A DNA stretch of 64,000 nt from Escherichia coli. Lineage in GTDB: Bacteria > Pseudomonadota > Gammaproteobacteria > Enterobacterales > Enterobacteriaceae. Under the pieces are notes generated by a model. The model ran no database searches, was not told the DNA's origin, and saw only the letters and a list, made by a program, of their open reading frames with translations. How positions within the stretch are numbered: position 1 is the first letter of the stretch; each line of letters starts with the position of its first letter. The stretch lies in NCBI RefSeq assembly GCF_051903065.1, contig NZ_CP178438.1, one strand, 5' to 3'. Shown piece after piece: positions 2,005 through 39,951 of the stretch. Both the position numbers and the translations under genes were made by a program.

Positions 2005-2760
2005 CTACATATCTGCCAACAACATCCCAGCCATACCATCCAGTCGCTTCTTAACCTTTTCCCAGCCCGGCATAACCTGCCCCATCAGACGGTAAAACTC
2101 CTCGCTGTGGTTGTGCTCAGCCACATGGCATAACTCATGTAGCAAAACATAATCGATACATTCTGAGGATGCCTTAACCAGCCATGGATTCAGGGTCAGA
2201 CAGCCTTTTGCTGAACAGTTGCCCCATTGCGTTTGCATCGCCCGCAGACGTATCGGAGGACGCTCACTGACCCAAAGGGTCTGCGGAATCAGTAAATCAA
2301 GCCTGCGCTGAAAAACATCTCTGGCACGTTCCCGATACCATTCAGCCAGCAAGGCTTTAATCTTTTCTGCCGATTTGTGTCTGACAGTCACTTCCAGACG
2401 CCCACGCAACATTTTCACTCGTTGCGGCACAGTAGCGTCTTCTGTCACTTTCAACTGATATTGCTTACCGAGATAATAATGGCTTTCTCCGCTGACATAC
2501 TGACGCGGAACAATGTGTATCTGTTGCTCCCTGAAATCACGCAGTTGCTGGTATATCCAGCGCCCACGTTTTTTCAGCGCAGACAATACCTCGTGCTCCG
2601 GTGTTTCAGGCGGTACAGAGGCCACAACCCGGCAGTCCGGATAAACCTTAATGAGCACCCTGCCCTTTACGACCTGACGCGGAACACACTGTACGACGAT
2701 GACCTCATCACCATAGACAATGCGTAACGCTTTCATTGATGGCGATTCTTTTTCACTCAT
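2005..2760 (-). CDS. HExxH metal-dependent hydrolase (DUF45/YgjP/SprT-like), last gene of the R-M operon
   Basis: HELCHVAEHNH motif; 4-bp overlap with hsdR stop. Confidence 0.65.
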   Translation of the reverse strand: MSEKESPSMKALRIVYGDEVIVVQCVPRQVVKGRVLIKVYPDCRVVASVPPETPEHEVLSALKKRGRWIYQQLRDFREQQIHIVPRQYVSGESHYYLGKQYQLKVTEDATVPQRVKMLRGRLEVTVRHKSAEKIKALLAEWYRERARDVFQRRLDLLIPQTLWVSERPPIRLRAMQTQWGNCSAKGCLTLNPWLVKASSECIDYVLLHELCHVAEHNHSEEFYRLMGQVMPGWEKVKKRLDGMAGMLLADM

Positions 2761-5700
2761 GATTTCATCAAACCAACGCGCAGTATCTGGATGATGGTTT
2801 CCACAATACGGTTAACCTGATTCATTCCGGCACCAATTTCCCGGCAGGCCGTAAACAGCAGTGGTAGCAGACTTGTCTTAACGACTTTCTCAATGTCCTG
2901 GGGGTTCAGGGAGTTTTCTGCCACCGCTCTAACGATAATGCTGTCCACTTCAAAAGCCAGCTTCGTCCACTTATCCTGCACCTGAACGTCTTTTACCACA
3001 AAAACCTCAGGTAGCTCTTTTTTAAATACACCGTAATACGCCTGAGCATGCTTGTTTACCGCCAGTGCATCCGGGATATCGCTGAGCTTACGGGCTTCAA
3101 CCTGTTCTTCAAACTCACGGAATAAGAGGTACTGCTTAAGTGGATGGTCGAACAGTTTTTCAGCCTCTTCGATTGCCATACGCAGGAGTCTGGAAAAGGC
3201 CTCCTGAGCATACGGATCATCACGCAGCTCCTGCTCAATCATCTTCGTCACACGGGTTTTAATGATGTCGGTTTCATTGCGGGTTTTATTGTTGTCCCAC
3301 TCTTCGGGCTTTTCGCTCTTACCCATTTTACCGACTTCATACACGCCATCCGGTTCACGAACCTCAACGCCGGTGACATGCTTATCCAGCAGTTTTTTCA
3401 CCTGCTCGGCGTAGTCGTCATAATTGACCTGCTCTCCACTGACCTGCATCGCCCACTGGCGCAGGCTGGACATCTGTTTTACGGTTTCTTTATAGAGGTT
3501 TCGGTCTTGTTCCGTAAAGCTCTTGTCGGTGAAGAAGGTGGCGGACTGCAGTGCCACTTTCAGGCATCCGGCAAAGGCCGTTAACGCCTCGAAGAAATCA
3601 TCACGGGTTTTCTGATGGATATCGACCATCTCTCCGTCACGTTCTTCCATTTTAGGCACCAGTACCGCACGTAACTGCTCAGTATCATTTTTGTTTTTGA
3701 CACCAGCAAATATGGCCCACAGCTGGTTATACAGATGCGGCAGGCGCTTGTATTCAGAGCTCATGGCGCTGTACAGCCCGTCAATATCTTTGATGTCGTA
3801 TCCGCCCTGAGTTCGGGAGGCGAGGTCCTGATATTTGCCGATAGTCGTGTCCAGCTCAGCCAGAATACCGCGATAATCAATCAGCAGACCGAACTTTTTT
3901 AGTGGATGCAGTCGGTTCACCCGCGCAATCGCCTGGATAAGGTTGTGGGACTTAAGCGGCTTGTCGATATACAGCACGGTATTCTTCGGCTCATCAAACC
4001 CGGTGAGCAGTTTATCAACGACTATCAGCAATTTGAGCTTCTCATCGGTATCGAAACGACTGATGATATTGCGGGTATACACAGACTCATCCTGCGTGCC
4101 GACGTTATCTTTCCACCATTTCGTCACTTCCGGCAGTTTGCTTTCATCCACCTCAGTATTCCCTTCCCGGGTATCCGGCGGGCTGATAACTACAGCTGAC
4201 TCAAACAACCCGGCTTCATCAAGATACTTTTTATATTTGATGGCGGAAATCTTGCTGTCGCAGGCAAGCTGGCCTTTCAGCCCCTCATCAATATTCTTCG
4301 AGAAGTGCGTGGCGATATCGAGTGCGATCAGACGGATGCGATCATCTGCACTATAAACCTCACCTTTACGGGCATATTTACGCTTAAGGTCGGCTTTTTG
4401 CGCTTCGCTTAACCCATCGGTAATACGATCAAACCAGGCATCTATTGCCCGATCGTTAACCTCAAGGTCGGGAATACGTTCTTCATACAGCAAAGGTGTA
4501 ACGGCTTTATCTTCTACCGCTCGCTGCATGGTATAAGCGTGGACAATCGGTCCGAATTTATTGGTGGTCTTATCTTCTTTTAGCAATGGCGTACCAGTAA
4601 ATGCTACAAAGGCGGCGTTCGGCAGTGCCAGTTTCATTCGCACATGGTTCTCACCACCCTGGCTACGGTGTCCTTCATCAATCAGAACGATGATATCGGG
4701 GCTGGTATTGACGCATTCAGGAAGTTTTGTCGCTGAATTAAATTTCTGGATTAGGGTGAAAATGATGCGTTCTTTACCGGAGCCAATCTGTTTCGCCAGC
4801 ATCTGCCCGGATGTCGCCATTGCATTGGCTTTGTCTTTTTTCCCGGCCAACTCGCCGCCGGATGCAAAGGTACTGCTGAGCTGTTCTTCAAGATCGATAC
4901 GGTCCGTCACCACCACGATACGACACCGCTTCAGGCTGTCATGAAGGATCAGCGCCTTGCTGAGGAACACCATGGTGTACGATTTGCCAGAGCCGGTGGT
5001 ATGCCAGATAACACCACCTTCCCTGCCCCCATCGGGTCTGCGGGTACTGATGCGTTCCAGCAGTCTTTTAATCCCGAACACCTGCTGATAGCGGGCAACA
5101 ATTTTTCCGGTCTTTTTATCAAACAGGGTGAAGAAGCGGGTCATCTCCAGCAGACGTTCCGGCGAAAGCAGACTGATGAGCAGCTTATCCTGCCCGCTGA
5201 CAGCCAGTTCCCCCCCGGCGATTAACTGCTGATACCAGTTGAGATCGCCAACAGGACGATGCTCAAATAACGCATCAATTTGTTCAGTCGATAAAGGATG
5301 GTTGCGCAGGGCATACATCTGCGCATCGGTAATATCCTCTTCGCGCCATGCCGCCCAGAATTTCATTGGCGTATGGCATGTACCGTAGCGCCCGTCATGA
5401 CCGTTAATCGAAAGTAATAACTGGCTGTAGACAAACAGCTGCGGGATTTCATCGTTGAACTGGTTGCGGATACTCTGGGATATCCCCTCGTCAATGGTTG
5501 GCCCTTTCTTGCCATGACCAGCCGGGCTTTTCGCTTCAATAACAGCCAGCGGGATACCATTAACAAAGCAGACAATATCTGGCCTCCGGGTTTCAACACC
5601 ACCTGACCGCAATACCGTAAATTCTTCAGTAAAATGGAACTGGTTATTTTCCGGATGTTCCCAGTCGATCAGCGCAATGGTGGGGTTGACCTTCTTGCCA

Positions 5701-6044
5701 TCGACAAACTCCGTGACGGCGATACCGTAGAGCAGATGGTTATACATCCGCTCATTGGCTTTGAGCAGCCCTTCATTCAGCGCCGGAGAACAGACCTGTG
5801 ATATCAGGTTATCCAGTGCTTTTTCCGATAACTGGCAGGTTTTGCCACCCGCCATAAAGGAACGCTTCGACAGCTCTTCACGCAGAACCGGACGCAGCAC
5901 CACCTCATCCTGTTTATAGCCCCGGTAATCCATAATCTGTTTCGGAGATAAAAACGCCCAGCCGAGGCTGGTCAGTAACGTCAGTGCCGGAATTTTGGCG
6001 CTGTATTCTTCCTGGAATTTTGGCGTGTACGTCTGGTTCATCAT
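2757..6044 (-). CDS. hsdR: Type I restriction enzyme R subunit
   Basis: 1095-aa ORF with helicase motifs (GSGKS Walker A, DEGH box). Confidence 0.9.
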   Translation of the reverse strand: MMNQTYTPKFQEEYSAKIPALTLLTSLGWAFLSPKQIMDYRGYKQDEVVLRPVLREELSKRSFMAGGKTCQLSEKALDNLISQVCSPALNEGLLKANERMYNHLLYGIAVTEFVDGKKVNPTIALIDWEHPENNQFHFTEEFTVLRSGGVETRRPDIVCFVNGIPLAVIEAKSPAGHGKKGPTIDEGISQSIRNQFNDEIPQLFVYSQLLLSINGHDGRYGTCHTPMKFWAAWREEDITDAQMYALRNHPLSTEQIDALFEHRPVGDLNWYQQLIAGGELAVSGQDKLLISLLSPERLLEMTRFFTLFDKKTGKIVARYQQVFGIKRLLERISTRRPDGGREGGVIWHTTGSGKSYTMVFLSKALILHDSLKRCRIVVVTDRIDLEEQLSSTFASGGELAGKKDKANAMATSGQMLAKQIGSGKERIIFTLIQKFNSATKLPECVNTSPDIIVLIDEGHRSQGGENHVRMKLALPNAAFVAFTGTPLLKEDKTTNKFGPIVHAYTMQRAVEDKAVTPLLYEERIPDLEVNDRAIDAWFDRITDGLSEAQKADLKRKYARKGEVYSADDRIRLIALDIATHFSKNIDEGLKGQLACDSKISAIKYKKYLDEAGLFESAVVISPPDTREGNTEVDESKLPEVTKWWKDNVGTQDESVYTRNIISRFDTDEKLKLLIVVDKLLTGFDEPKNTVLYIDKPLKSHNLIQAIARVNRLHPLKKFGLLIDYRGILAELDTTIGKYQDLASRTQGGYDIKDIDGLYSAMSSEYKRLPHLYNQLWAIFAGVKNKNDTEQLRAVLVPKMEERDGEMVDIHQKTRDDFFEALTAFAGCLKVALQSATFFTDKSFTEQDRNLYKETVKQMSSLRQWAMQVSGEQVNYDDYAEQVKKLLDKHVTGVEVREPDGVYEVGKMGKSEKPEEWDNNKTRNETDIIKTRVTKMIEQELRDDPYAQEAFSRLLRMAIEEAEKLFDHPLKQYLLFREFEEQVEARKLSDIPDALAVNKHAQAYYGVFKKELPEVFVVKDVQVQDKWTKLAFEVDSIIVRAVAENSLNPQDIEKVVKTSLLPLLFTACREIGAGMNQVNRIVETIIQILRVGLMKS

Positions 6045-6093
6045 TAATCCTTTTCTTTCTGGCGCTACTCGCTACTGGTCACATGAAGATTCA

Positions 6094-6777
6094 TCAATGC
6101 AGACAGCACCTCTTAAATTTTTTACCGCTGCCACACGGACACGGGTCATTTCGCCCGGGCATGTTTTCTGCCCCCTTCACTGGAACAGGCCGGGATGATG
6201 CCTCTGACATTCTCACTGACAACCAGTACTGATAAAGTGCCAGTGCAGCAGGCTGAATAAGGGAAATACTTTTCTCAAACTGCTCTCCGGTCATTTTCTC
6301 AAGTACAGGAAAATTCTTCTCCACGCCATGAAGAGCGATCACTTCCAGAGAAGGCCGTAACTCACCGGGAAGACCAGACCAGTCATCCAGTGACTTTCCT
6401 TTCATATAACCAAAACACCACTCTTCCACAATGGTATATTTTTCCCCCTTTACCTCACGCTCATTGAAAATCGGTTCAAACTGTTCAGGGGCCTCATACA
6501 GGCAGCCAGCGATATCGTTCATATGCTGAAAACACAGCCCCACAAAACGCGTCATCTCTTTTTCGGTGGTCCAGCGAGGGTGGTAATCACCTCGCCCCCA
6601 GATAGCACTGAGCCAGGTATTAGGGGAAATCGTATTCGGGCCAGAGACAATCGCTGTCAGAAAGCCATCCAGCTCAGAGAAACAGAGCACAGAATCATCA
6701 TTGCCGTATTTCAGCAACACCTCTTCCAGCCAGTCGATTTCCCGGTCAATCAGCGGCCCGCTTTTCGTCAGTTTCAT
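6094..6777 (-). CDS. YecA-like UPF0149 protein with C-terminal SEC-C zinc motif, embedded between hsdS and hsdR
   Basis: 227 aa; C-terminal GRNDPCPCGSGKKFKRCC; start ATG overlaps hsdS stop (ATGA). Confidence 0.8.
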   Translation of the reverse strand: MKLTKSGPLIDREIDWLEEVLLKYGNDDSVLCFSELDGFLTAIVSGPNTISPNTWLSAIWGRGDYHPRWTTEKEMTRFVGLCFQHMNDIAGCLYEAPEQFEPIFNEREVKGEKYTIVEEWCFGYMKGKSLDDWSGLPGELRPSLEVIALHGVEKNFPVLEKMTGEQFEKSISLIQPAALALYQYWLSVRMSEASSRPVPVKGAENMPGRNDPCPCGSGKKFKRCCLH

Positions 6778-8012
6778 TCGGCAACCGCCTCATCGACCTT
6801 AACACGACGTTTGCCAGTCAGTAGCTGTTGCATCAGGGCTTTTTTCTCATCTCTCAGGCAGGCGAGTTTTTTCTCCAGCGTGGAGATTTCGGCATCGGCG
6901 ACGGACAGGACGGCGGCGATTTTTTGTTGTTCTCTTATACTGGGTAAGTCTAGTTCAAACTCTTTAACCATTCCGGCGTTTAGGTTGGACTGTGTACCTT
7001 GCTGGCCTTGTAGTTTTATTTTTTCTTTTAATGATGTAAGATAGAAATATAAAAACTCATAATTTAAACAATCTTTTGGTCTAATACCCAAGATTGCCTG
7101 CGAAGATGTTAAATTTACAGCAGCAATGCTGCATTCACCTATAGAAGCATACATAGCATAAAGAACCGAGTTTTTTGGATATATTCTTGCGGATGAACTG
7201 TTCAATCCTAATTCAGTCAGATATTTTTCAGTTGTAGCAATCCACTTTCCATTAGATGTCATATCAGAAATAGATACCCATGGGATATTCCCGCCATAAT
7301 ACTCTTCAACCGTTGATTTCGGAGTACCTCCACTGTTCATATCGGCTATCGCACCCAGTTTTACTCTCTTCCACTCCCCACTAAACCTCACCCCATTCTC
7401 ATCCAGCAAGCGTTTCTTCCCGGTAAGTAATTGCTGCATCAGGGCTTTTTTCTGCTGCTGACTATTGGCGAGCAGCTTTTCCGTCACTGAAATCGCGTTA
7501 TCCCAGGTTGACAAGATTTTGGCTATTTTCTTTTGTTCCGCCAGTGGGGGGAGTAATACAGGAAAACCGCAAACATCATCACGTGTAATATTAGGGTCTT
7601 TACGACTACTTGCCGCAAATTTCTTCCATAATTTTACATTCCCGTTTAAGTAATTCAGGATATATGCTGGTTCTGCTTTATCACGATCGAGTATAAGACC
7701 GGATAATGCTTGGTTTATTGCTGCCGGTATAGTGAGAAGTCCAGTTCTTCCGATCTGGTTAAAGCCTCCATACATCGCTACTAAAACAGTACCAACAGGA
7801 AATACAGAGCAAGATGTTTCTAAAAGGGCTGTGTCAGTAATTTTCTCATCAGTTGAGATAATTTCACCGTTATTTAGGTCTAATGTCTTTACCCATGGAG
7901 TACCAGCAGTAGAAAAATAACGCTCTCCCTCAGCCCTCAGCGGAGTAGATCCAGATTTAATTTTTGCTATGTCCGATAATTTGACATGTCTCCAGCCAGG
8001 TTTGAGCTTCAT
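6774..8012 (-). CDS. hsdS: Type I R-M specificity subunit
   Basis: Two target-recognition domains with repeated conserved spacer motif KKALMQQLLTGK(K/R)R. Confidence 0.85.
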   Translation of the reverse strand: MKLKPGWRHVKLSDIAKIKSGSTPLRAEGERYFSTAGTPWVKTLDLNNGEIISTDEKITDTALLETSCSVFPVGTVLVAMYGGFNQIGRTGLLTIPAAINQALSGLILDRDKAEPAYILNYLNGNVKLWKKFAASSRKDPNITRDDVCGFPVLLPPLAEQKKIAKILSTWDNAISVTEKLLANSQQQKKALMQQLLTGKKRLLDENGVRFSGEWKRVKLGAIADMNSGGTPKSTVEEYYGGNIPWVSISDMTSNGKWIATTEKYLTELGLNSSSARIYPKNSVLYAMYASIGECSIAAVNLTSSQAILGIRPKDCLNYEFLYFYLTSLKEKIKLQGQQGTQSNLNAGMVKEFELDLPSIREQQKIAAVLSVADAEISTLEKKLACLRDEKKALMQQLLTGKRRVKVDEAVAE

Positions 8013-9565
8013 AAGCTATCCTCTTGCATACTGAAGTTTTCTCTTTCACCATAACCCAACTCCTTCAGATAACCCGCCATCTCTGTTTCGAGTTTTGACA
8101 GTTCCACTTTCAATTGCTCACGTTCGGCACGCACAGCCAGCAAGTCAATCTCGTCTTCTTCCTCAAAGGTATCGACATAGCGCGGAATATTGAGGTTGTA
8201 ATCGTTGTCCTGAATTTCCTTCAGGCTGGCGAGATAGGCGTATTTCTCGACGTTATCGCCATCACGGTAGGTCTTGACGATTTTCTTAATGTTTTCTTCG
8301 CTAAGCTGGTTCTGGTTTTTACCTGCCTTGAATTCACGGCTGGCATCGATAAACAGCACCTTATCATCAACTTTCTGCTTTTTGAAAATCAGAATCGCAG
8401 CCGGAATCCCCGTACCGTAGAACAGTTTTTCCGGCAGACCAATTACCGCATCCAGCAAATTTTCGTCGATCAGTTTCTGGCGAATTTTACCTTCGCTGGA
8501 GCCACGGAAAAGCACACCGTGTGGCACAACTACGCCCATACGGCCAGTTCCCGGTTTCAGGGTTTCGATCATATGCGAGATAAAAGCGTAATCTCCTTTA
8601 GTCTTCGGCGGTACACCGCGACGAAAACGGCCAAACTTATCGTTCTCAGCCTCGTCATGGCCCCACTTATCCAGGCTGAACGGTGGGTTAGCGGTCACGA
8701 TATCAAACAGCATCAGGTCGCCATTTTTATCGAGCAGTTTCGGGTTACGAATGGTATCGCCCCACTCGATTTTATGGTTGTCTTCGCCGTGCAGGAACAT
8801 GTTCATTTTCGCCAGCGACCACGTGGAGCCAATCGCTTCCTGACCAAACAACGCATAATTACGGCTGTTATGTCCGGAGACAATTTTACGTCCGCACTTC
8901 ATCAATAACGAACCAGAGCCGCAGGCCGGATCGCAGATGGTATCACCCGGTTGCGGATCAAGCAGTTCAGCAATCAGGTCTGAAACTTCTGGTGGGGTAT
9001 AGAATTCCCCGGCTTTCTGCCCACCGCTGGCGGCAAAGTTTTTGATCAGATATTCGTAGGCATTACCGATAACGTCCAGCGTACCTACACGGCTTGGCTT
9101 CAGGTTGAGATCTTCACCGGCGAAGTCTTCCAGCAACTGACGCAGGATGGTGTTCTTCTGTTTTTCTTCACCCAAGCGGTCAGTGTTAAACGAAATATCC
9201 TGGAACACGCTTTTCCCGGCATCTTTCAGTTTGGTTCCGTTGGCTTCTTCGATTGCATGCAGAGCCTGATCGATACGCTCACCGTTACCCGGCTCATGGC
9301 GGCGTTCGTACAGCGCATAAAAGCTGGCACTTTTTGGCAGTACAAAACGCTCGTTGGCCATCATCGCTTCAATCAGTTCCGGCGCATCGCCATACTGTTC
9401 TTTGTATTCGTCATAGTGATCCTGCCAGACATCTGAAATGTACTTGAGGAACAGCATGGTAAGGATAAAGTCTTTATAGGTATCAGCACTGATGGTGCCA
9501 CGGAACGTATCACACGCGGCCCACAGGGCTTTGTTGATCGTGTCCTGACTGATTTTGTCGTTCAT
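8009..9565 (-). CDS. hsdM: Type I R-M N6-adenine DNA methyltransferase
   Basis: 518 aa; NPPF catalytic motif; AdoMet-binding DPACGSG; 4-bp overlap with hsdS. Confidence 0.9.
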   Translation of the reverse strand: MNDKISQDTINKALWAACDTFRGTISADTYKDFILTMLFLKYISDVWQDHYDEYKEQYGDAPELIEAMMANERFVLPKSASFYALYERRHEPGNGERIDQALHAIEEANGTKLKDAGKSVFQDISFNTDRLGEEKQKNTILRQLLEDFAGEDLNLKPSRVGTLDVIGNAYEYLIKNFAASGGQKAGEFYTPPEVSDLIAELLDPQPGDTICDPACGSGSLLMKCGRKIVSGHNSRNYALFGQEAIGSTWSLAKMNMFLHGEDNHKIEWGDTIRNPKLLDKNGDLMLFDIVTANPPFSLDKWGHDEAENDKFGRFRRGVPPKTKGDYAFISHMIETLKPGTGRMGVVVPHGVLFRGSSEGKIRQKLIDENLLDAVIGLPEKLFYGTGIPAAILIFKKQKVDDKVLFIDASREFKAGKNQNQLSEENIKKIVKTYRDGDNVEKYAYLASLKEIQDNDYNLNIPRYVDTFEEEDEIDLLAVRAEREQLKVELSKLETEMAGYLKELGYGERENFSMQEDSL

Positions 9566-15476: not shown

Positions 15477-16065
15477 GCAGCAAACACAGCTGTAGACAAC
15501 GATGAAAAATATCTGTCCTTTGCATTAGTTCTCGCTATCACGATTATGGACAACTTAGTAAAGCTCATCGGCACAGATGGCTTCGTACTTTATACCTACA
15601 CCCTGCAGGACACGGCTACTGCTCGTGCTGTTTTTAATGAATTAGCCAGGCGTCTCAAAAATTTCAATCGTCAGGAGGAGGTCTACACCACCGATTCCCT
15701 CACCTTTCGAATGAAATACATTTACGGTGTTACCCTGTTCGAACATGATAGTAAATCTATCCTTAACCTCTTTGATAAGAAGGGTTATCCGGTATTGAGT
15801 GAATCAGGAGAACCCGGTTCTCTTGATGATATGTATCTTGACATTCAAGCCCGATTACATGGCGGCTACGCCTCAAAAAAGTTTCTTCATTTACATGAAC
15901 ATTGTCTGTTATCTGCACACGTTACCCCGTCTGTGGAAAAGACGCAACGCGGTATCCTGATTAAAGTAGGCAGGAAACTCGTTTCCTTTATCCATGTAGA
16001 TGATGAATCACACAAAACCGATATTTTCAAATCTGTAGTAAATGTTATTAAATCTTGATTCTTTA

Positions 16066-16093
16066 TGCCGGGACACAGCTCCCGGCATTTTTT
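16066..16093 (+). terminator. Hairpin plus T-tract just upstream of the piPolB start
   Basis: tgccggga-cacagc-tcccggca followed by tttttt. Confidence 0.5.
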
Positions 16094-16104
16094 CGGAGTT
16101 AACT

Positions 16105-18705
16105 ATGAGCAATAATTTGCAGGACATCCTCGCTGCCGCCTCGGGGTATCAGTCCGTGACTTCAGAGCCAGCGTTCAATCGTAAAAGACCTAAAACGCTT
16201 GATGATTATCCTGTGATACCACCTGCATCAAAAAAAGTATCTGTTATTTCAAGTGACCTGACACTCCATATCGGTTTTGATACCGAATATGTTTTCAACC
16301 CTGAAACACGACAGAATGATATTCTGTCATATCAGAGTTATGTTGTCTTACCCGATAATACAGGTATATCGAACATTATCTATCCACCTGACTCACAGAA
16401 AAAATCCCGGCTGTCTTTTAAGGAATTTCTCTGTCAAACGATTACACCGCTTCTTGAAACGGGTGTGATTACAAAATGGCCCGGTATTATTAATATATAT
16501 GCGCATTTCATTCGTGCGGATATCGCCTCCTTTGCCAATTTCTGGTCAGACTACAAAATTCTTCTGAAAGGAATACGCGGTACTGTCAGCAGCTTCAAAA
16601 ATCGTTACGGTATCGATTTTGATGAACAGCAGGAACGTCGCGTAAAGACTGAACAGATAATGTTTGACAAACGAACTTCCCCTCCGCGTTGCAGTAACGT
16701 AGCTTTCATCGATACACTGCTTATCACTCCCGGGGGTATGGGTCTGGCTGAATGTGGTGAATTACTGGGTCTTCCCAAACTCACCATTCCTGCACCTTAT
16801 TCCATAACCAATATGCGTGAATATCTTCTGGGCGACAGAGCAGGGTTTGAAGCCTATGCTCTGCGGGATGCCGAGATTGCGGTTCGTTATGCTTTACAGG
16901 TTCGCAATTTTTGCGCCCGGGAGCTGATGATTGATCGTGTCCCCGCCACCATCGGGGCGATGGCAGTTTCACGGTTCACCAAAACACTTAAAGAAAACAA
17001 TATGTCTCCTGAAGTCTGCCTTGGGACACACATTAAAACCCGTGAACTCTGGCTCACGGAGAAACAGGCATTCCGGACGATTAAAAACCCCGCCAGTGTT
17101 CCTTCAAGAGAGTTGTTTGAAACGTTCCCGATCAACTGTTACCACGGCGGACGCAATGAGTGTTTTATGATGGGGGTTACACCGTCTGATCACTGGTATG
17201 ACTACGATCTGGCTGGAGCGTATACCACCGGGCTATTAGATATCCTCACACCCGATTACGGGAACATCCGCCTCAGTAAAAATCCGGACGATTACTGTGG
17301 GCATGTAATGGGATTTGCGCTTGTCACATTTCGGTTCCCGGAATCAGTTCCCTATCCCAGCCTGCCGGTTCGGACCGATCAATATGGGTTATTCTTTCCA
17401 TTAAGTGGCGAATCATGGGCAACGGCACCTGAAATCGAACTTGCTCTGTCGCTCGGGGCAGAGATGACGATCCATAATGGGATCATCGTCCCCTGGATCT
17501 GTGACACCTCCCCACATAACAGCGAATCAACATCGGTGTTTCTTCCCTTTGTTCAACAGGTCCGTGAGAACCGTAATCGCCATATTAAAGGTTCTCTGGA
17601 GGAGAAATTCTGGAAAGAAATTGGCAACTCGCTTTATGGCAAACTTGCTCAGGGCCTTCGCGCCAAAACCGCCTTTGATACTGCCCGTGGATTAAACAGA
17701 TCCCTCCCACCATCATCGGTTACTCAGCCATTCTTTGCTGCGCATGTGACGGGATTTATCCGCGCCGTTGTCGGGGAACTCATGAATGCTTTGCCTTCTG
17801 ATTCATCGGTTGTCAGCGTCACAACCGATGGTTTTTTGACAAATTGCCCACTTGACAAGATAAACATGAGCGGTCCACTGTCTTCCCGCTTCCAGTCGCT
17901 GTGCGATATTGTTGATCCGGGTTCATCAATGTTGACATGTAAGCATGAGGTCAGCCAGCTTATCGCCATGAAAACCCGGGGGCAGTTAACCTATAGAGCT
18001 ATTCAGGGAAAACCTGTTGTTCATGCCAGGGCTGGCGTCAAACCTCCTGCCGATATTCCACGCAGTGACTATAACGACTATATGGTAGATCTTTACCTTA
18101 ATCGTTTACCCGGTCAGACGTTATCCCGAAGTACGTTGATATCAACGCGTGAGATGTGGCTCTCGGAAAGCGATCTGGTATCCCGGGAACAGGATATCCG
18201 TCTTAATCTGGAATTCGATTTCAAACGCCAGCCCGTACAGCCCGCCATGAATGAAGGGCATTTACTGATGTTTTCCCGCCCGTGGGATAATATGGAAGAG
18301 GCTCTGCAGCAACGCTCTCTTTTCGACGACTGGCGGCAAACGCATACACTGAAGACCCTGGCTGACTGGGATGACTGGTGTGATTTTCTCTATTGCCGGA
18401 CGGTGTTTTCTGATATGAAACTAAAAGTCGGAAGCAAACGTAGTGATGATATTTTAGTCAGACTATTTCTCCGGGCGCTGACTCAGTGCCAATGGGGGCT
18501 GATGCTGAAAGATAAAAAAAGTTATTCCTGTAAAGAGGTTGCTGAATGGCTGACGTCAGAAGGCTATTCAGTAACGGTGACTGATGTAAAAAATGCGGTA
18601 AGAGCAAAAATACCCCAAATGAAATTTAGTTCTGTAACACCGCGAATGAAGTCACTGATGGATATCATAGCCCGTAAATATCCGACATTCTGTCTTCCAG
18701 TCTGA
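16105..18705 (+). CDS. Family-B DNA polymerase of the primer-independent (piPolB) type
   Basis: Exo I FDTEY, Exo III YALRD, motif B NSLYGKL, motif C VTTDG, and KTRG in place of KxY; start taken at MSNNLQ after GGAG. Confidence 0.8.
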   Translation: MSNNLQDILAAASGYQSVTSEPAFNRKRPKTLDDYPVIPPASKKVSVISSDLTLHIGFDTEYVFNPETRQNDILSYQSYVVLPDNTGISNIIYPPDSQKKSRLSFKEFLCQTITPLLETGVITKWPGIINIYAHFIRADIASFANFWSDYKILLKGIRGTVSSFKNRYGIDFDEQQERRVKTEQIMFDKRTSPPRCSNVAFIDTLLITPGGMGLAECGELLGLPKLTIPAPYSITNMREYLLGDRAGFEAYALRDAEIAVRYALQVRNFCARELMIDRVPATIGAMAVSRFTKTLKENNMSPEVCLGTHIKTRELWLTEKQAFRTIKNPASVPSRELFETFPINCYHGGRNECFMMGVTPSDHWYDYDLAGAYTTGLLDILTPDYGNIRLSKNPDDYCGHVMGFALVTFRFPESVPYPSLPVRTDQYGLFFPLSGESWATAPEIELALSLGAEMTIHNGIIVPWICDTSPHNSESTSVFLPFVQQVRENRNRHIKGSLEEKFWKEIGNSLYGKLAQGLRAKTAFDTARGLNRSLPPSSVTQPFFAAHVTGFIRAVVGELMNALPSDSSVVSVTTDGFLTNCPLDKINMSGPLSSRFQSLCDIVDPGSSMLTCKHEVSQLIAMKTRGQLTYRAIQGKPVVHARAGVKPPADIPRSDYNDYMVDLYLNRLPGQTLSRSTLISTREMWLSESDLVSREQDIRLNLEFDFKRQPVQPAMNEGHLLMFSRPWDNMEEALQQRSLFDDWRQTHTLKTLADWDDWCDFLYCRTVFSDMKLKVGSKRSDDILVRLFLRALTQCQWGLMLKDKKSYSCKEVAEWLTSEGYSVTVTDVKNAVRAKIPQMKFSSVTPRMKSLMDIIARKYPTFCLPV

Positions 18706-24436: not shown

Positions 24437-25636
24437 TCACATCTGCTTCGTAGCCGCAGTATTCAGAAGCAGGTCAGTCACTCCCTGCCCTGTCTGACGC
24501 ATACGTTCCGGTGTTAATTTCGCGTAACGTTCTGTACTCTGAATACTGGCATGCGCCAGTTGGGCTTTAACGTCATACAGGCTGAATTGACCACTCGAAA
24601 CCAGTAAAGAGGCAACAGAATGACGTGTGGTGTGAAAACAGACTTCATTCTTGTCTATACCGCACTGTGCCAGTATTTTTTCATATGCCCATCGGGGTTC
24701 CGATATCGGTTTTCCATTATCCTTAATGGCGAACAGATACGGATTACTGCCAACTCGTGGGATAGCATCAATAATCGATAATGCGGCATCGCTTAGATAT
24801 ACCGTCCGACTGCGACCATTTTTTGTATAAGGAATGAACAGAGTACGATTGGCCCGGTCGATATGTTCATGCCTGACATTAAGCATTTCTGATTTGCGTG
24901 TACCGGTTAACAACAACATGGCTATCAATCCCCCGGCAGCTTTGTTGGGATATTGGGTAGCAGCGTCAAGAATGCGCCTGATCTCATCAGCATCAAAAAA
25001 GCGCGTCCGCTGATTATTCTCTTTCAGTAAAGGGATCTTATCGGCTTCATTCTTTTCCAGCACATCCTGTCGCAACGCATAACGCCCCATCGTTTTCAGA
25101 ATAGCAAGGGCTCTGTTACAGGTAGACGGCGCATATTGCTGCCCGTGAATACGCCCCTCCAGCATGTCAAACAGCACCTGTTGTATCTCTCTGGCCCTGA
25201 GATCGCAGTAACGTATCTTTCCCAGACGAGGTTCAATGTATTGCGTGAAACGCTGAACATCCTTATCCCAGGACTTTTTATGGCGCTTGATGAACGGAAC
25301 ATAGGTCTGGTGAAAAAACTCACTAAGCGTTGGCATCGCACGATAATTATCGCGCTCTGCCTTGGGGTCATTTCCAAGTGCAATCGCCTCCTTATGACGG
25401 CGAGCTATCTGGCGAGCTGTCCCCACATCAATTTCAGGGAATCTGCCAATACTGATACTTTTTTTGGTACCGTGGAATGTGTAGCGCAGGAGGAAACGTT
25501 TGTTACCCGTTCGACCTGAGAGACATTTGAGGCCAATAACTTCGGTATCAGATACCTCAAGCTCTGTAGATCGGGTATCTGTGTTTGCCGGAAGGGCTTT
25601 GATGGATGAATTGGTGAATCGGAAGGATTTTTGCAT
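24437..25636 (-). CDS. P4-type tyrosine integrase with N-terminal arm-binding domain
   Basis: R...HxxR...Y catalytic residues (HTTRHSVAS, TERYAKL); start at MQKSF after GAGGA. Confidence 0.85.
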   Translation of the reverse strand: MQKSFRFTNSSIKALPANTDTRSTELEVSDTEVIGLKCLSGRTGNKRFLLRYTFHGTKKSISIGRFPEIDVGTARQIARRHKEAIALGNDPKAERDNYRAMPTLSEFFHQTYVPFIKRHKKSWDKDVQRFTQYIEPRLGKIRYCDLRAREIQQVLFDMLEGRIHGQQYAPSTCNRALAILKTMGRYALRQDVLEKNEADKIPLLKENNQRTRFFDADEIRRILDAATQYPNKAAGGLIAMLLLTGTRKSEMLNVRHEHIDRANRTLFIPYTKNGRSRTVYLSDAALSIIDAIPRVGSNPYLFAIKDNGKPISEPRWAYEKILAQCGIDKNEVCFHTTRHSVASLLVSSGQFSLYDVKAQLAHASIQSTERYAKLTPERMRQTGQGVTDLLLNTAATKQM

Positions 25637-25716
25637 ATTTATCCTCATGTATCTGATTGATATCATGAAAATAATATATATCTGAAGGTGTTTTTATTAC
25701 GGGGCAGGATTGAAGA

Positions 25717-26698: not shown

Positions 26699-26785
26699 TG
26701 GTACCCGGAGCGGGACTTGAACCCGCACAGCGCGAACGCCGAGGGATTTTAAATCCCTTGTGTCTACCGATTCCACCATCCGGGC
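26699..26785 (-). tRNA. leuZ: tRNA-Leu (anticodon UAA)
   Basis: 87-nt match to recalled E. coli leuZ, CCA end encoded. Confidence 0.9.
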
Positions 26786-26797
26786 TCGGGAAGAAAG

Positions 26798-26871
26798 TGG
26801 AGGCGCGTTCCGGAGTCGAACCGGACTAGACGGATTTGCAATCCGCTACATAACCGCTTTGTTAACGCGCC
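26798..26871 (-). tRNA. cysT: tRNA-Cys (GCA)
   Basis: 74-nt match to recalled cysT. Confidence 0.9.
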
Positions 26872-26924
26872 AAATTCTTCAGGCCTTTCAGCCAGACATC
26901 CGCTGACGCCGATGTCTTTTAAAC

Positions 26925-27000
<76 letters not shown>

Positions 27001-36672: not shown

Positions 36673-36794
36673 GATAAACAGCCCTGCGTTATATGAGTTA
36701 TCGGCATGATTATCCGTTTCTGCAGGGTTTTTAATCGGACGATTAGTGGGTGAAATGAGGGGTTATTTGGGGGTTACCGGTAAATTGCGGACAG

Positions 36795-36817
36795 AAAAAA
36801 CCCCGCCGGCGGCGGGG
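36795..36817 (-). terminator. Terminator in the fliC 3' region
   Basis: ccccgccggcggcgggg palindrome followed by T-run on minus strand. Confidence 0.5.
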
Positions 36818-36849
36818 AAGCACGTTGCTGACAAATTACCATTCATGTT

Positions 36850-36885
<36 letters not shown>

Positions 36886-36919
36886 AAATGTGCAAATTCA
36901 ATAAATTGCAATTCACCTT

Positions 36920-36949
36920 GTAGGCCTGATAAGCGCAGCGCATCAGGCA
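36920..36949. repeat. REP element
   Basis: gtaggcctgataagcgcagcgcatcaggca. Confidence 0.6.
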
Positions 36950-36991
36950 ATTTGGCGTTGCCGTCAGTCTCAGTTAATCAGGTTACGACGA

Positions 36992-38290
36992 TTAACCCTG
37001 CAGCAGAGACAGAACCTGCTGAGGAACCTGGTTAGCTTTGGACAGCACGGAGTTACCGGCCTGCTGAACGATCTGCGCTTTAGACATATTTGACACTTCG
37101 GTCGCATAGTCGGCATCCTGAATACGGGACTGCGCTTCAGACAGGTTAGTGGTGGTGTTATTCAGGTTGGTTACAGCAGAGCTCAGACGATTCTGTACCG
37201 CACCCAGAGAAGAACGGAATTTATCAACAGAAGCGATAGCTTTGTCCAATAGTGCCAGTGGGTTCTGAGTTGCAGTACCTTTCAGCTCAGTAGTTGCACC
37301 AGTACCGCTCAGTTGCAGAGTACCGGTATCAACAGCTGTAGTTGGAGCTGCAACACCGCTGTTCGCCAGAACGTCAACACCGGTCGCACCAGCCTGATAG
37401 TTTTTACCCTGAATGGTTACGTAACCAACAGCTGCACCGTTGGCGTCAGAAGTTACTTTGATCAGCTGACCGTTCTGAGTCGCTCCAGTAACACCATTAG
37501 TAGCGTCATCATAGGTGACGTCAGTGGTGTTCAGGTTAACTGCACCAGAGGCCGCGTTTACAGACACAGCATAGTTGTCGCTGCCAGAAGAAACAACGAA
37601 GGTACCAGTACCGTCACCAGCAGAGTCCTGAACTTCGTGCAGGCTCAGGGTGCTTGCATTCACGCCCAGTTTAGTTGCTACTGCGCTCAGGTCCACGTTC
37701 TTCGATGCAGCAGTAGTATTGCCGATCGTAGTGATAGAATCGCTCAGTTTCAGGGAGTTCTGAGAAACAGAGAAGCCGCTCAGACCCAGAGTAGAAGAGT
37801 CTATTTTCTGCAGGTCGATAGAGATAGTCTGGCCATCGTTCGCGCCAACCTGAATTGCCATAGAACCGTTTTTAGCCAGTACGTTCACGCCGTTAAACTG
37901 GGTCTGACCAGAGACGCGGTCAATTTCATCCAGACGAGATTTAATTTCATCCTGAATAGAAGAGAGATCGGAATCAGAGTTGGTACCAGTGGTGGCCTGC
38001 ACGGTCAACTCACGCACACGCTGCAAGTTGTTGTTAATCTCTGACAGCGCGCCTTCTGCTGTCTGTGCTAGAGAAATACCGTCATTGGCGTTACGTGCAG
38101 CCTGAGTCAGACCTTTGATGTTAGAAGTGAAGCGGTTAGCAATCGCCTGGCCCGCAGCGTCATCTTTAGCGCTGTTAATGCGCAGACCAGAAGAGAGGCG
38201 CTCGATAGAAGTCGACAGCGCAGACTGGTTTTTGTTGATGTTGTTCTGAGTGATCAGCGAGAGGCTGTTGGTATTAATGACTTGTGCCAT
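36992..38290 (-). CDS. fliC: Flagellin
   Basis: 432 aa; conserved N/C termini with a variable centre. Confidence 0.95.
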
Positions 38291-38366
38291 GATTCATTTT
38301 CCTGTTTTCAAGTCTACGGTTTAAGTATTGGGCTTCCACCCTTCGGCTTCGTCGCCGTCAACCCTG

Positions 38367-38393
38367 TTATCGTCTGGTCACTCACAACCTTTA
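38367..38393 (-). promoter_or_regulatory. Sigma-28 promoter for fliC
   Basis: Minus strand TAAAGGTT-N11-GACGATAA versus consensus TAAAGTTT-N11-GCCGATAA. Confidence 0.5.
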
Positions 38394-38466
38394 GAATTTT
38401 TTTCTAGCGGTCGAAATACTCCCCTTCCTCGTTGCTGTTCGTGTCATTAAGCCAAAAAATAAATCG

Positions 38467-38493
38467 TAAACTTTGCCCCGCTTACGCCGATAA
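38467..38493 (+). promoter_or_regulatory. Sigma-28 promoter for fliDST
   Basis: TAAACTTT-N11-GCCGATAA. Confidence 0.7.
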
Positions 38494-38535
38494 CCCCGGT
38501 ATTCGTTCTATACGTCGCATGATTAAGGAATCTAT

Positions 38536-39951
38536 ATGGCTAGTATTTCAACGCTTGGGGTTGGGTCGGGGCTGGACTTAAGCAGCATCCTTGACAGTCT
38601 GGAGGCGGCAGAAAAATCTACCCTGACGCCGATATCAAAACAGCAAAGCTCTTATACCGCGAAACTGAGCGCCTACGGGACGCTGAAAAGCGCACTAGAG
38701 AGCTTCCAGACAGCCAACACAGCACTGAATAAAGCCGATTTATTTACCGCCACCTCAACCACCAGCAGTTCATCGGCTTTCAGCGCCACCACCACGGGCA
38801 GCGCGATTGCCGGGAAATACACCATTAGCGTTAGCCAACTGGCGCAGGCACAAACGCTGACCACAAAAATTAGTCAAAAAGACAGTAAAGCTGCCATCGC
38901 AACCAGCGATAGCGTACTGACCATCCAGCAAGGCGGCGGTAAAGATCCGGTCACGATTGATATCAGCGCGGCTAACTCGTCACTTTCCGGCATTCGCGAT
39001 GCCATTAACAACGCCAAAGCTGGTGTCAGCGCCAGTATCATCAATGTGGGAAACGGCGAATATCGTCTGTCCATCACCGCTAACGATACGGGCAACGATA
39101 ACGCTATGAAACTTAGCGTCAGCGGCGACAGCGCCCTGGAAAGTTTTATGGGTTACAACGGAACGTCGGGTGATAGCAGCAATGGCATGATTGAAAGCGT
39201 CACCGCGCAAAACGCCAAACTGACAGTCAATAACGTTGAGATTGAAAACAGCAGTAACACTATCAGCGACGCGCTGGAAGATATCACACTCAACCTGAAT
39301 GACGTCACCACCGGTAATCAGACACTGACCATCAGTAAAGACACATCCAAAGCTGAAAATGCAGTCAAAGCATGGGTGGATGCCTATAACACATTGCAGG
39401 ATACATTCAGTAGCTTAACCAAATACACCGCTGTCGATGCCGGAGCAGAAAGTCAGGACTCCAGTAATGGAGCATTACTTGGTGACTCCACACTGCGTAC
39501 CATCCAGACACAGCTTAAAACCTTGCTCGCCAATACTCACAGCAGTTCAAACTATAAAACGCTGGCACAGATTGGCATTACCAGCGATGCCAGTACCGGC
39601 AAGCTGGAAATCGCGACCGACAAACTGCAAACGGCACTAAAAAAAGATGCCGCAGGCATCGGTGAAATGTTTATAGGTGACGGTAAAAGTACAGGGGTAA
39701 CTACCGGCATTAGTAGCAACCTGACCAGTTGGCTCTCTTCCACCGGGATAATCCAGGCCGCAAAAGATGGCGTCAGCAAAACGCTGAATAATTTGACCGA
39801 CCAGTACAACGCAGCCAGTGAGCGTATCGATACCTTAATGACGCGCTATAAAGCCCAGTTCACCCAATTAGATGTGTTAATGAACTCGCTTAACTCCACC
39901 AGTAGCTATCTGACACAGCAGTTCGACACCTCAAATAGCAACTCGAAATAA
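38536..39951 (+). CDS. fliD: Flagellar filament cap protein
   Basis: 471 aa. Confidence 0.95.
   Translation: MASISTLGVGSGLDLSSILDSLEAAEKSTLTPISKQQSSYTAKLSAYGTLKSALESFQTANTALNKADLFTATSTTSSSSAFSATTTGSAIAGKYTISVSQLAQAQTLTTKISQKDSKAAIATSDSVLTIQQGGGKDPVTIDISAANSSLSGIRDAINNAKAGVSASIINVGNGEYRLSITANDTGNDNAMKLSVSGDSALESFMGYNGTSGDSSNGMIESVTAQNAKLTVNNVEIENSSNTISDALEDITLNLNDVTTGNQTLTISKDTSKAENAVKAWVDAYNTLQDTFSSLTKYTAVDAGAESQDSSNGALLGDSTLRTIQTQLKTLLANTHSSSNYKTLAQIGITSDASTGKLEIATDKLQTALKKDAAGIGEMFIGDGKSTGVTTGISSNLTSWLSSTGIIQAAKDGVSKTLNNLTDQYNAASERIDTLMTRYKAQFTQLDVLMNSLNSTSSYLTQQFDTSNSNSK

Follow-up and report, generated by a model that had tools for sequence, protein, structure and literature searches.

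The open reading frame at positions 36992..38290 on the minus strand of the window (the whole 64-kb stretch of DNA analyzed here) is almost certainly the flagellar filament gene fliC, carrying the allele for the H39 antigen. Comparison with flagellin genes of other E. coli strains and of Enterobacter further indicates that H39 fliC is probably a mosaic whose antigenic segment was exchanged between genera. With regard to direction, we lean toward a scenario in which a ~0.8-kb piece of Enterobacter-type fliC, comprising the variable domain and the 3′ conserved region, entered an E. coli fliC by homologous recombination and thereby created H39. The allele call itself matters for typing only; the mosaic origin would be a modest evolutionary and diagnostic addition.

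Identification of an intact fliC gene

The open reading frames of the 64-kb window include an intact ATG-to-stop frame of 432 codons that coincides exactly with 36992..38290 (-). Its product matches the Pfam families Flagellin_N (PF00669; residues 5–141, E 1e-46, 158.9 bits against a cut-off of 26.6) and Flagellin_C (PF00700; residues 346–430, E 2e-31, 108.9 bits against a cut-off of 23), and with both families matched the frame cannot be attributed to chance. An earlier note on this DNA had described a 432-residue FliC, shorter than the 498-residue H48 flagellin of K-12; both lengths hold, the first given the intact frame with flagellin domains at both ends and the second given the annotation of K-12 MG1655 fliC at 1497 nt. 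The gene and the predicted parts of its product are as follows:

36992..38290 (-), fliC CDS, H39 flagellin (432 aa plus stop; open reading frame, Pfam, and 431/432 residues identical to the H39 type strain)
37766..38290 (-), codons 1–175, conserved N-terminal helical part D0/D1 (93–99% amino acid identity to other E. coli alleles)
37271..37765 (-), codons 176–340, hypervariable, surface-exposed central domain and H39 determinant (21% amino acid identity to K-12 on the multiple alignment)
36992..37270 (-), codons 341–432 plus stop, conserved C-terminal helical part D1/D0 (Pfam Flagellin_C at residues 346–430)

In RefSeq the identical gene bears only the generic name ‘FliC/FljB family flagellin’. 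Its surroundings, established from open reading frames, Pfam matches, and the RefSeq annotation of the identical genome, show the canonical gene order of the E. coli fliC locus, with dcyD-tcyJ-fliZ-fliA-fliC (tcyJ being fliY) followed by fliD-fliS-fliT-amyA; the latter group is divergent from fliC, and fliC lies upstream of fliA-fliZ. An antisense frame of 243 aa inside fliC, at 37313..38044 (+), was also considered; nothing independent supports it, and the composition of the coding strand most likely accounts for it. E. coli strains 23CRST027 and 23CRST031, from human faeces in Ecuador, are 100.0% identical to the window over 24 kb, single-base indels excepted: between window positions 8009–36992 and NZ_AP045789.1 two one-base shifts in offset imply two such indels relative to that assembly.

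Domain composition and predicted structure

Amino acid identity to K-12 is 93% over residues 1–175 and 91% over residues 341–432 as against 21% over residues 176–340, in keeping with the conserved termini that had been described earlier. In an alignment of 11 alleles nearly every column of the N-terminal part is invariant. Residues 89–98, which we take to be the TLR5-recognized stretch of D1 from the established role of the 89–96 region of Salmonella FliC, are invariant across the 11 aligned alleles except at V92. The TLR5–flagellin complex 3v47 is among the PDB sequence matches, and all strong matches in the PDB are flagellar filaments. At the other end of the protein, residues 341–432 are 100% identical to E. 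kobei and 91–96% identical to other E. coli alleles, and V408 (AQIVQQ) is common only to the window FliC and the Enterobacter 432-aa alleles among the 11 aligned.

The center had been called rich in Thr, Ser, Gly, and Asn, and these four residues do make up 45.5% of residues 176–340, compared with 39% of the N-terminal part and 33% of the C-terminal part; yet Ala (13.9%) and Val (10.9%) match Ser and Asn in prominence there, so that the domain is overall Thr/Ala/Gly/Val/Ser/Asn-rich. In the alignment, the 66-residue shortfall relative to K-12 H48 corresponds to extra material in the K-12 center; judging from these sequences, the shorter length of the window protein reflects a smaller surface-exposed central, or outer, domain.

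An AlphaFold model built from an 11-sequence alignment had low confidence overall (pLDDT 59.8), with a β-rich domain at residues ~181–300 (pLDDT 74–92) flanked by long helices as expected of D0/D1, among them helices at residues 4–39, 45–100, and 106–128. The best match of this model among solved structures was Salmonella FliC delta 204–292, in which D3 is deleted (PDB 9iwq), with large rmsd values. The fold search confirms a flagellin and offers a hint of a D3-less architecture.

Transcription signals and proposed working

Motif and terminator scans, together with similarity to K-12, placed four candidate elements around the gene:

38367..38393 (-), sigma-28 (FliA) type promoter of fliC, TAAAGGTT-N11-GACGATAA, its end 76 nt upstream of the ATG (identified by match to the consensus)
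38467..38493 (+), sigma-28 type promoter-like site facing the divergent fliD, TAAA-N15-GCCGATAA (motif scan)
36794..36988 (-), fliC 3′ UTR, equivalent of the K-12 FliX small RNA, with REP-like repeats (96.9% identity to annotated K-12 fliX)
36801..36817 (-), intrinsic terminator of fliC, CCCCGCCGCCGGCGGGG then TTTTTT (terminator scan: 7 G-C pairs plus T run)

The fliC motif stands at an equal distance from the ATG in K-12 and lies 80 nt upstream in E. kobei, and the site facing fliD is the single match to its pattern in the entire window, where 0.06 would be expected by chance. Downstream of the fliC stop codon, the 195-nt FliX-equivalent stretch ends in a strong terminator; Rfam gave no match in or beside fliC, and this stretch was mapped instead through its similarity to K-12.

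From established knowledge of flagellins, fliC would be transcribed by FliA (sigma-28) from a class-3 promoter, and FliS would act as chaperone for its product, which would pass through the flagellar type III apparatus and polymerize beneath the FliD cap. The helices of residues ~1–175 and ~341–432 would form the filament core (D0/D1), with D1 bearing the stretch recognized by TLR5, and the ~165-residue center would form a β-rich outer domain on the filament surface, constituting the H39 antigen.

Assignment of the allele to H39

We compared the window protein with the flagellin reference database in supplementary file 9 of PMC3578835, a set for mass-spectrometric H typing that lists gi|30059910 as ‘H39’ from strain E3a. 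The window protein and this type-strain flagellin are identical at 431 of 432 residues; the sole change, D245N, lies in the variable domain and is described as conservative, and D245 variants are present among database members of the same protein cluster as the window FliC. The gi|30059910 sequence reportedly belongs to the set of Wang et al. 2003. Typing was also performed in silico with the primer and probe sets that Table S8-5 of PMC11529414 gives for each of the 53 H types. Primers H39-F and H39-R and the H39 probe matched the window fliC with 0 mismatches (nt 832–851, 1034–1052, and 880–909, respectively), defining an amplicon of 221 bp (nt 832–1052), and for the remaining 52 H types at least 7 mismatches were counted when summed over each primer pair. 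The same procedure called K-12 as H48, this being the only control with an independently known H type; ATCC 8739 was called H33, H9Ecoli and UTME-7 were called H29, and ECCRA-119 was called H25.

Given that the type-strain protein is matched at all but one residue and that the primer and probe match is both exact and exclusive, the sequence identifies the allele as H39, one of the 53 recognized H antigens, rare and already known; no observation made here speaks against this assignment. The earlier note had proposed an H serotype allele other than that of K-12 and had suggested comparison with H-typing references as a check; this comparison, made here with published primers and a published flagellin database, supplies the name. 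A megablast search found the full-length allele at ≥99% identity in 9 of 5,426 complete E. coli genomes, the rest matching through the conserved ends only. H39 has been catalogued for decades and is present in routine serotype tables. It is recorded in ST10 bovine-mastitis isolates (PMC5422975); a paper on the baboon isolate PapRG-06-5 gives sequence types without a serotype, and an E. coli fliC PCR-RFLP paper contains nothing about H39 or gene lengths.

The low count among complete genomes and the generic RefSeq name might be taken to mean that this is an uncatalogued new H type, or a variant merely resembling a known one. We regard that reading as scarcely credible, and as refuted at the sequence level, with a single conservative change from the H39 type strain in 432 residues and with the H39-specific primers and probe matching exactly.

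A separate question is whether this fliC encodes the flagellin that is expressed, as the strain could be non-motile or could use a second locus (flkA, fllA, flmA, or flnA). Some E. coli have additional flagellin loci accompanied by a fliC repressor, and the DNA visible here is 64 kb of the genome. Such an arrangement nevertheless appears very unlikely: the fliC frame is intact, with a sigma-28 promoter motif and a terminator; fliA, fliZ, fliD, fliS, fliT, and the fliE-to-fliL genes are all intact in the window; and the primers for the non-fliC H types (H3, H17, H35, H36, H44, H47, H53, H54, and H55) have no match to the window fliC. Those for H3, H17, H35, H44, H47, H53, H54, and H55 have no match anywhere in the 64-kb window.

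An Enterobacter-like segment within fliC

The 90%-identity protein cluster that contains the window FliC also includes flagellins labeled Enterobacter kobei, E. soli, and E. asburiae, and the E. kobei member aligns with it across the full 432 residues at 95% identity. The chromosomes that bear the E. kobei gene are genuinely those of Enterobacter and show the same gene order; the flanks there have 65–86% nucleotide identity to the window, and fliC itself has 90.8%. Nucleotides ~453–1269 of fliC, which cover the variable center and the conserved 3′ part, are 92–94% identical to the gene for the E. kobei / E. soli 432-aa flagellin. Informative sites and synonymous divergence (dS) delimit one further feature:

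37022..37838 (-), Enterobacter-like mosaic segment, fliC nt 453–1269 (three-way informative sites, dS)

Sliding-window identity in 100-nt bins, calculated for the window against E. coli strains and E. kobei, gave the following pattern. The fliA gene and the fliA–fliC spacer are 91–100% identical to all E. coli strains compared, and the fliC–fliD spacer, fliD, and the first 100 nt of fliC are 93–100% identical to strains of types H25, H29, and H33 as against 61–88% to K-12. Across the center of fliC, identity is 82–96% to E. kobei versus 39–84% to the closest E. coli allele, and in the conserved 3′ part it is 96–98% to E. kobei versus 91–94% to the H33 and H29 alleles. In pairwise protein alignments the center has 90% identity with the Enterobacter 432-aa allele, and its identity to H33, H29, H25, H48, and two other Enterobacter alleles does not exceed 53%; among the E. 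coli H types sampled, the closest apart from H39 itself (H33, H29, and H25) fall at 43–53%.

A three-way test of informative sites among the window, the E. coli H33 strain 2020CK-00188, and E. kobei placed the edges of this resemblance. From 60 nt upstream of the gene to fliC nt 450, an unbroken run of 71 sites is of E. coli type; between nt 453 and 1269 Enterobacter-type sites predominate; and from nt 1296 to 150 nt downstream a further unbroken run of 92 sites is of E. coli type. The 5′ breakpoint at nt 450–453 was set against 2020CK-00188, which is possibly itself recombinant with an H39-type 5′ end; for this reason the point where the Enterobacter-like segment begins is uncertain. In that strain (L008, 3001–3450) the 5′ 420–450 nt of fliC are 99.5% identical to H39 and 93% identical to other H33 alleles, a pattern suggesting that the gene arose by recombination within fliC between H39 and H33 lineages.

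Synonymous divergence over nt 451–1296 is 0.25 relative to E. kobei and 0.17–0.20 relative to the E. soli-type copies, compared with 0.81–2.6 for the flanking genes fliA, tcyJ, dcyD, fliS, fliZ, and amyA and 0.96 for fliC nt 199–450. The first 198 nt of fliC also have a low dS relative to E. kobei (0.27), possibly owing in part to codon bias or to a mosaic of greater complexity.

Two alternatives to acquisition from Enterobacter, which we consider unlikely even when taken together, are that the resemblance is an ancient polymorphism present in both genera and that the allele was transferred from E. coli to Enterobacter. Flagellin alleles are subject to diversifying or balancing selection, which lends the first of these some appeal, and H25, H29, H33, H39, and the Enterobacter 421-aa and 432-aa alleles form one domain family with 40–62% amino acid identity, such that some of this variety may predate the genera; either alternative could also accommodate the fact that the closest Enterobacter copy is still ~6% divergent. 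An ancient polymorphism, however, predicts a dS at least as high as that of the flanks, and the values seen are 0.17–0.25 as against 0.8–2.6, with sharp breakpoints. Low dS combined with sharp edges thus rules out, in our assessment, an old polymorphism inherited by both genera and points to exchange between them.

Proposed direction and origin of the probable exchange

The 3′ conserved part of H39 is 94–98% identical to Enterobacter alleles, including ones with unrelated centers, versus 86.5–96% to E. coli alleles. At genus-diagnostic sites, H39 has the E. coli state at 6/6 in the 5′ part of the gene; in the 3′ region there are three such sites, of which nt 1209 and 1269 agree with Enterobacter in H39 and nt 1296 agrees with E. 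coli. With three diagnostic sites in the 3′ region, the direction that we infer rests on little. Divergence between the E. kobei-type and E. soli-type copies is 3.8% in fliC and 5% in fliA, and this parallel suggests that the 432-aa allele has long been resident in Enterobacter.

A transfer from E. coli to Enterobacter sits poorly with these observations: the 3′ part of H39 has Enterobacter-type states that are common to Enterobacter alleles with unrelated centers, the allele occurs in two Enterobacter species with a divergence parallel to that of fliA, and the E. coli H39 copies are mutually near-uniform (99.6–100%). Entry of an Enterobacter-type piece into E. coli is accordingly the direction that we favor, with reservation. 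Within the segment, however, identity to the best-matching Enterobacter copy reaches 93.6%, and the actual donor is therefore not among the sampled sequences.

Wider searches of species-representative genomes and metagenomes revealed no closer copy. The only relative among 100,044 species-representative genomes was a distant one, at 54% identity, in an Enterobacter MAG (L013), and the E. coli, E. kobei, and E. soli representatives therefore carry other alleles. A scan of metagenome contigs with a 35-nt conserved stretch found two, both of Enterobacter type and at most 92.1% identical in the segment. A query of a 5.8-billion-protein collection with the central domain gave seven fragments and no full-length protein, the best being a partial Enterobacter hormaechei flagellin at 90%.

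If the proposed direction is correct, the mosaic would be a worked example of how a new H antigen enters E. coli, through recombination within fliC with a donor from another genus, and H antigens would be exchanged across genera of the Enterobacteriaceae. Within E. coli, it is already an accepted idea that fliC recombines and is transferred horizontally (PMC548302). We found no paper linking H39 to Enterobacter; a 2003 survey of E. coli fliC, outside our coverage, may discuss an outside origin, and we do not claim the link as new. An H39 antiserum should, under the proposed origin, cross-react with Enterobacter carrying the 432-aa allele, and the mosaic predicts a risk of both serological and PCR cross-reaction between E. 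coli H39 and some Enterobacter. At window positions 37628–37678 (fliC nt 613–663), 51 nt of the ‘hypervariable’ region are identical in H39 and the four Enterobacter 432-aa alleles compared and absent in the other alleles examined; this shared stretch is of probe length, and cross-reaction in typing assays is possible.

Neighboring regions and related loci

Several further features of the window and of the loci compared with it were recorded. At window positions 38291–39951, fliD (471 aa) and the fliC–fliD spacer are 93–100% identical to the H25, H29, and H33 strains, and the divergence from K-12 stops just inside fliS; on this pattern the filament cap gene seems to travel with the flagellin family. 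In the widely used strain E. coli ATCC 8739 (L007, 339–2764) the same spacer contains an IS66-family element, ISEc43, with three open reading frames, which parts fliC from some of the sequence upstream of it and could alter how flagellin is expressed.

A large insertion occupies window positions ~1–26700, adjoining a tRNA-Leu/Cys/Gly cluster (Rfam, 26702–27000). It also bears a second tyrosine recombinase and IS5 and IS1 remnants, and it looks like an integrative or defence island. Between yedL and fliE (window 45900–49300) there are a frameshifted DUF5503 gene, an acetyltransferase fragment, and an integrase fragment, along with one intact gene; the K-12 counterpart of this region contains the yedN pseudogene. 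The individual features are:

about 2757–9565, type I restriction-modification system in the insertion
16042–18705, type-B DNA polymerase family protein in the insertion
24437–25666 (-), site-specific integrase in the insertion
47836–48975 (-), intact 379-aa leucine-rich-repeat protein between yedL and fliE
61863–61949 (-), DsrA small RNA (full-length Rfam match, 102.5 bits)

Enterobacter strains with identical FliA were found to have very different upstream content (L014–L023). The variants include a 274–275-aa flagellin followed by a FliB-like methylase, flagellins of 402 aa or 421 aa, and clusters of glycosyltransferase and methyltransferase genes; given this variety, fliC in Enterobacter is at least as polymorphic as in E. 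coli.

Comparison with known flagellins

The flagellin of the H39 type strain E3a has the same length as the window protein (432 aa) and the same type of locus, fliC, and differs from it at D245N. The H48 flagellin of K-12 (FliC, b1923, 498 aa; filament structure 8cxm) is the product of the same gene at the same locus, with N- and C-terminal core regions that are 93% and 91% identical at the amino acid level; its center, in contrast, is 21% identical and 66 residues longer, and the K-12 fliD and fliC–fliD spacer belong to another allele family with 61–82% nucleotide identity to the window.

The closest E. coli H types sampled are H33 (428 aa), H29 (440–442 aa), and H25 (443 aa), which have an alignable central domain of similar size and share the fliD allele family of the window (93–100% nucleotide identity). 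Their central domains are 43–53% identical to that of the window protein, however, and they are distinct antigens with typing primers of their own.

The 432-aa flagellin of E. kobei and E. soli (P0003, P0007, and P0010; L001 and L024–L029) has the same length as the window protein, with 95–96% amino acid and 91–92.5% nucleotide identity over the whole gene; its center is 90% identical at the amino acid level, and V408 is held in common. It differs in that the 5′ 450 nt of the gene are of Enterobacter type, with 89–90% identity to the window, that the chromosomal flanks have 65–86% nucleotide identity, and that the fliC–fliA spacer is 163 bp long as compared with 319 bp in the window. Lastly, the structural match to Salmonella FliC without D3 (9iwq) hints, at the level of a predicted model, at a flagellin with D0, D1, and a single compact outer region, not one with the full D2 and D3.
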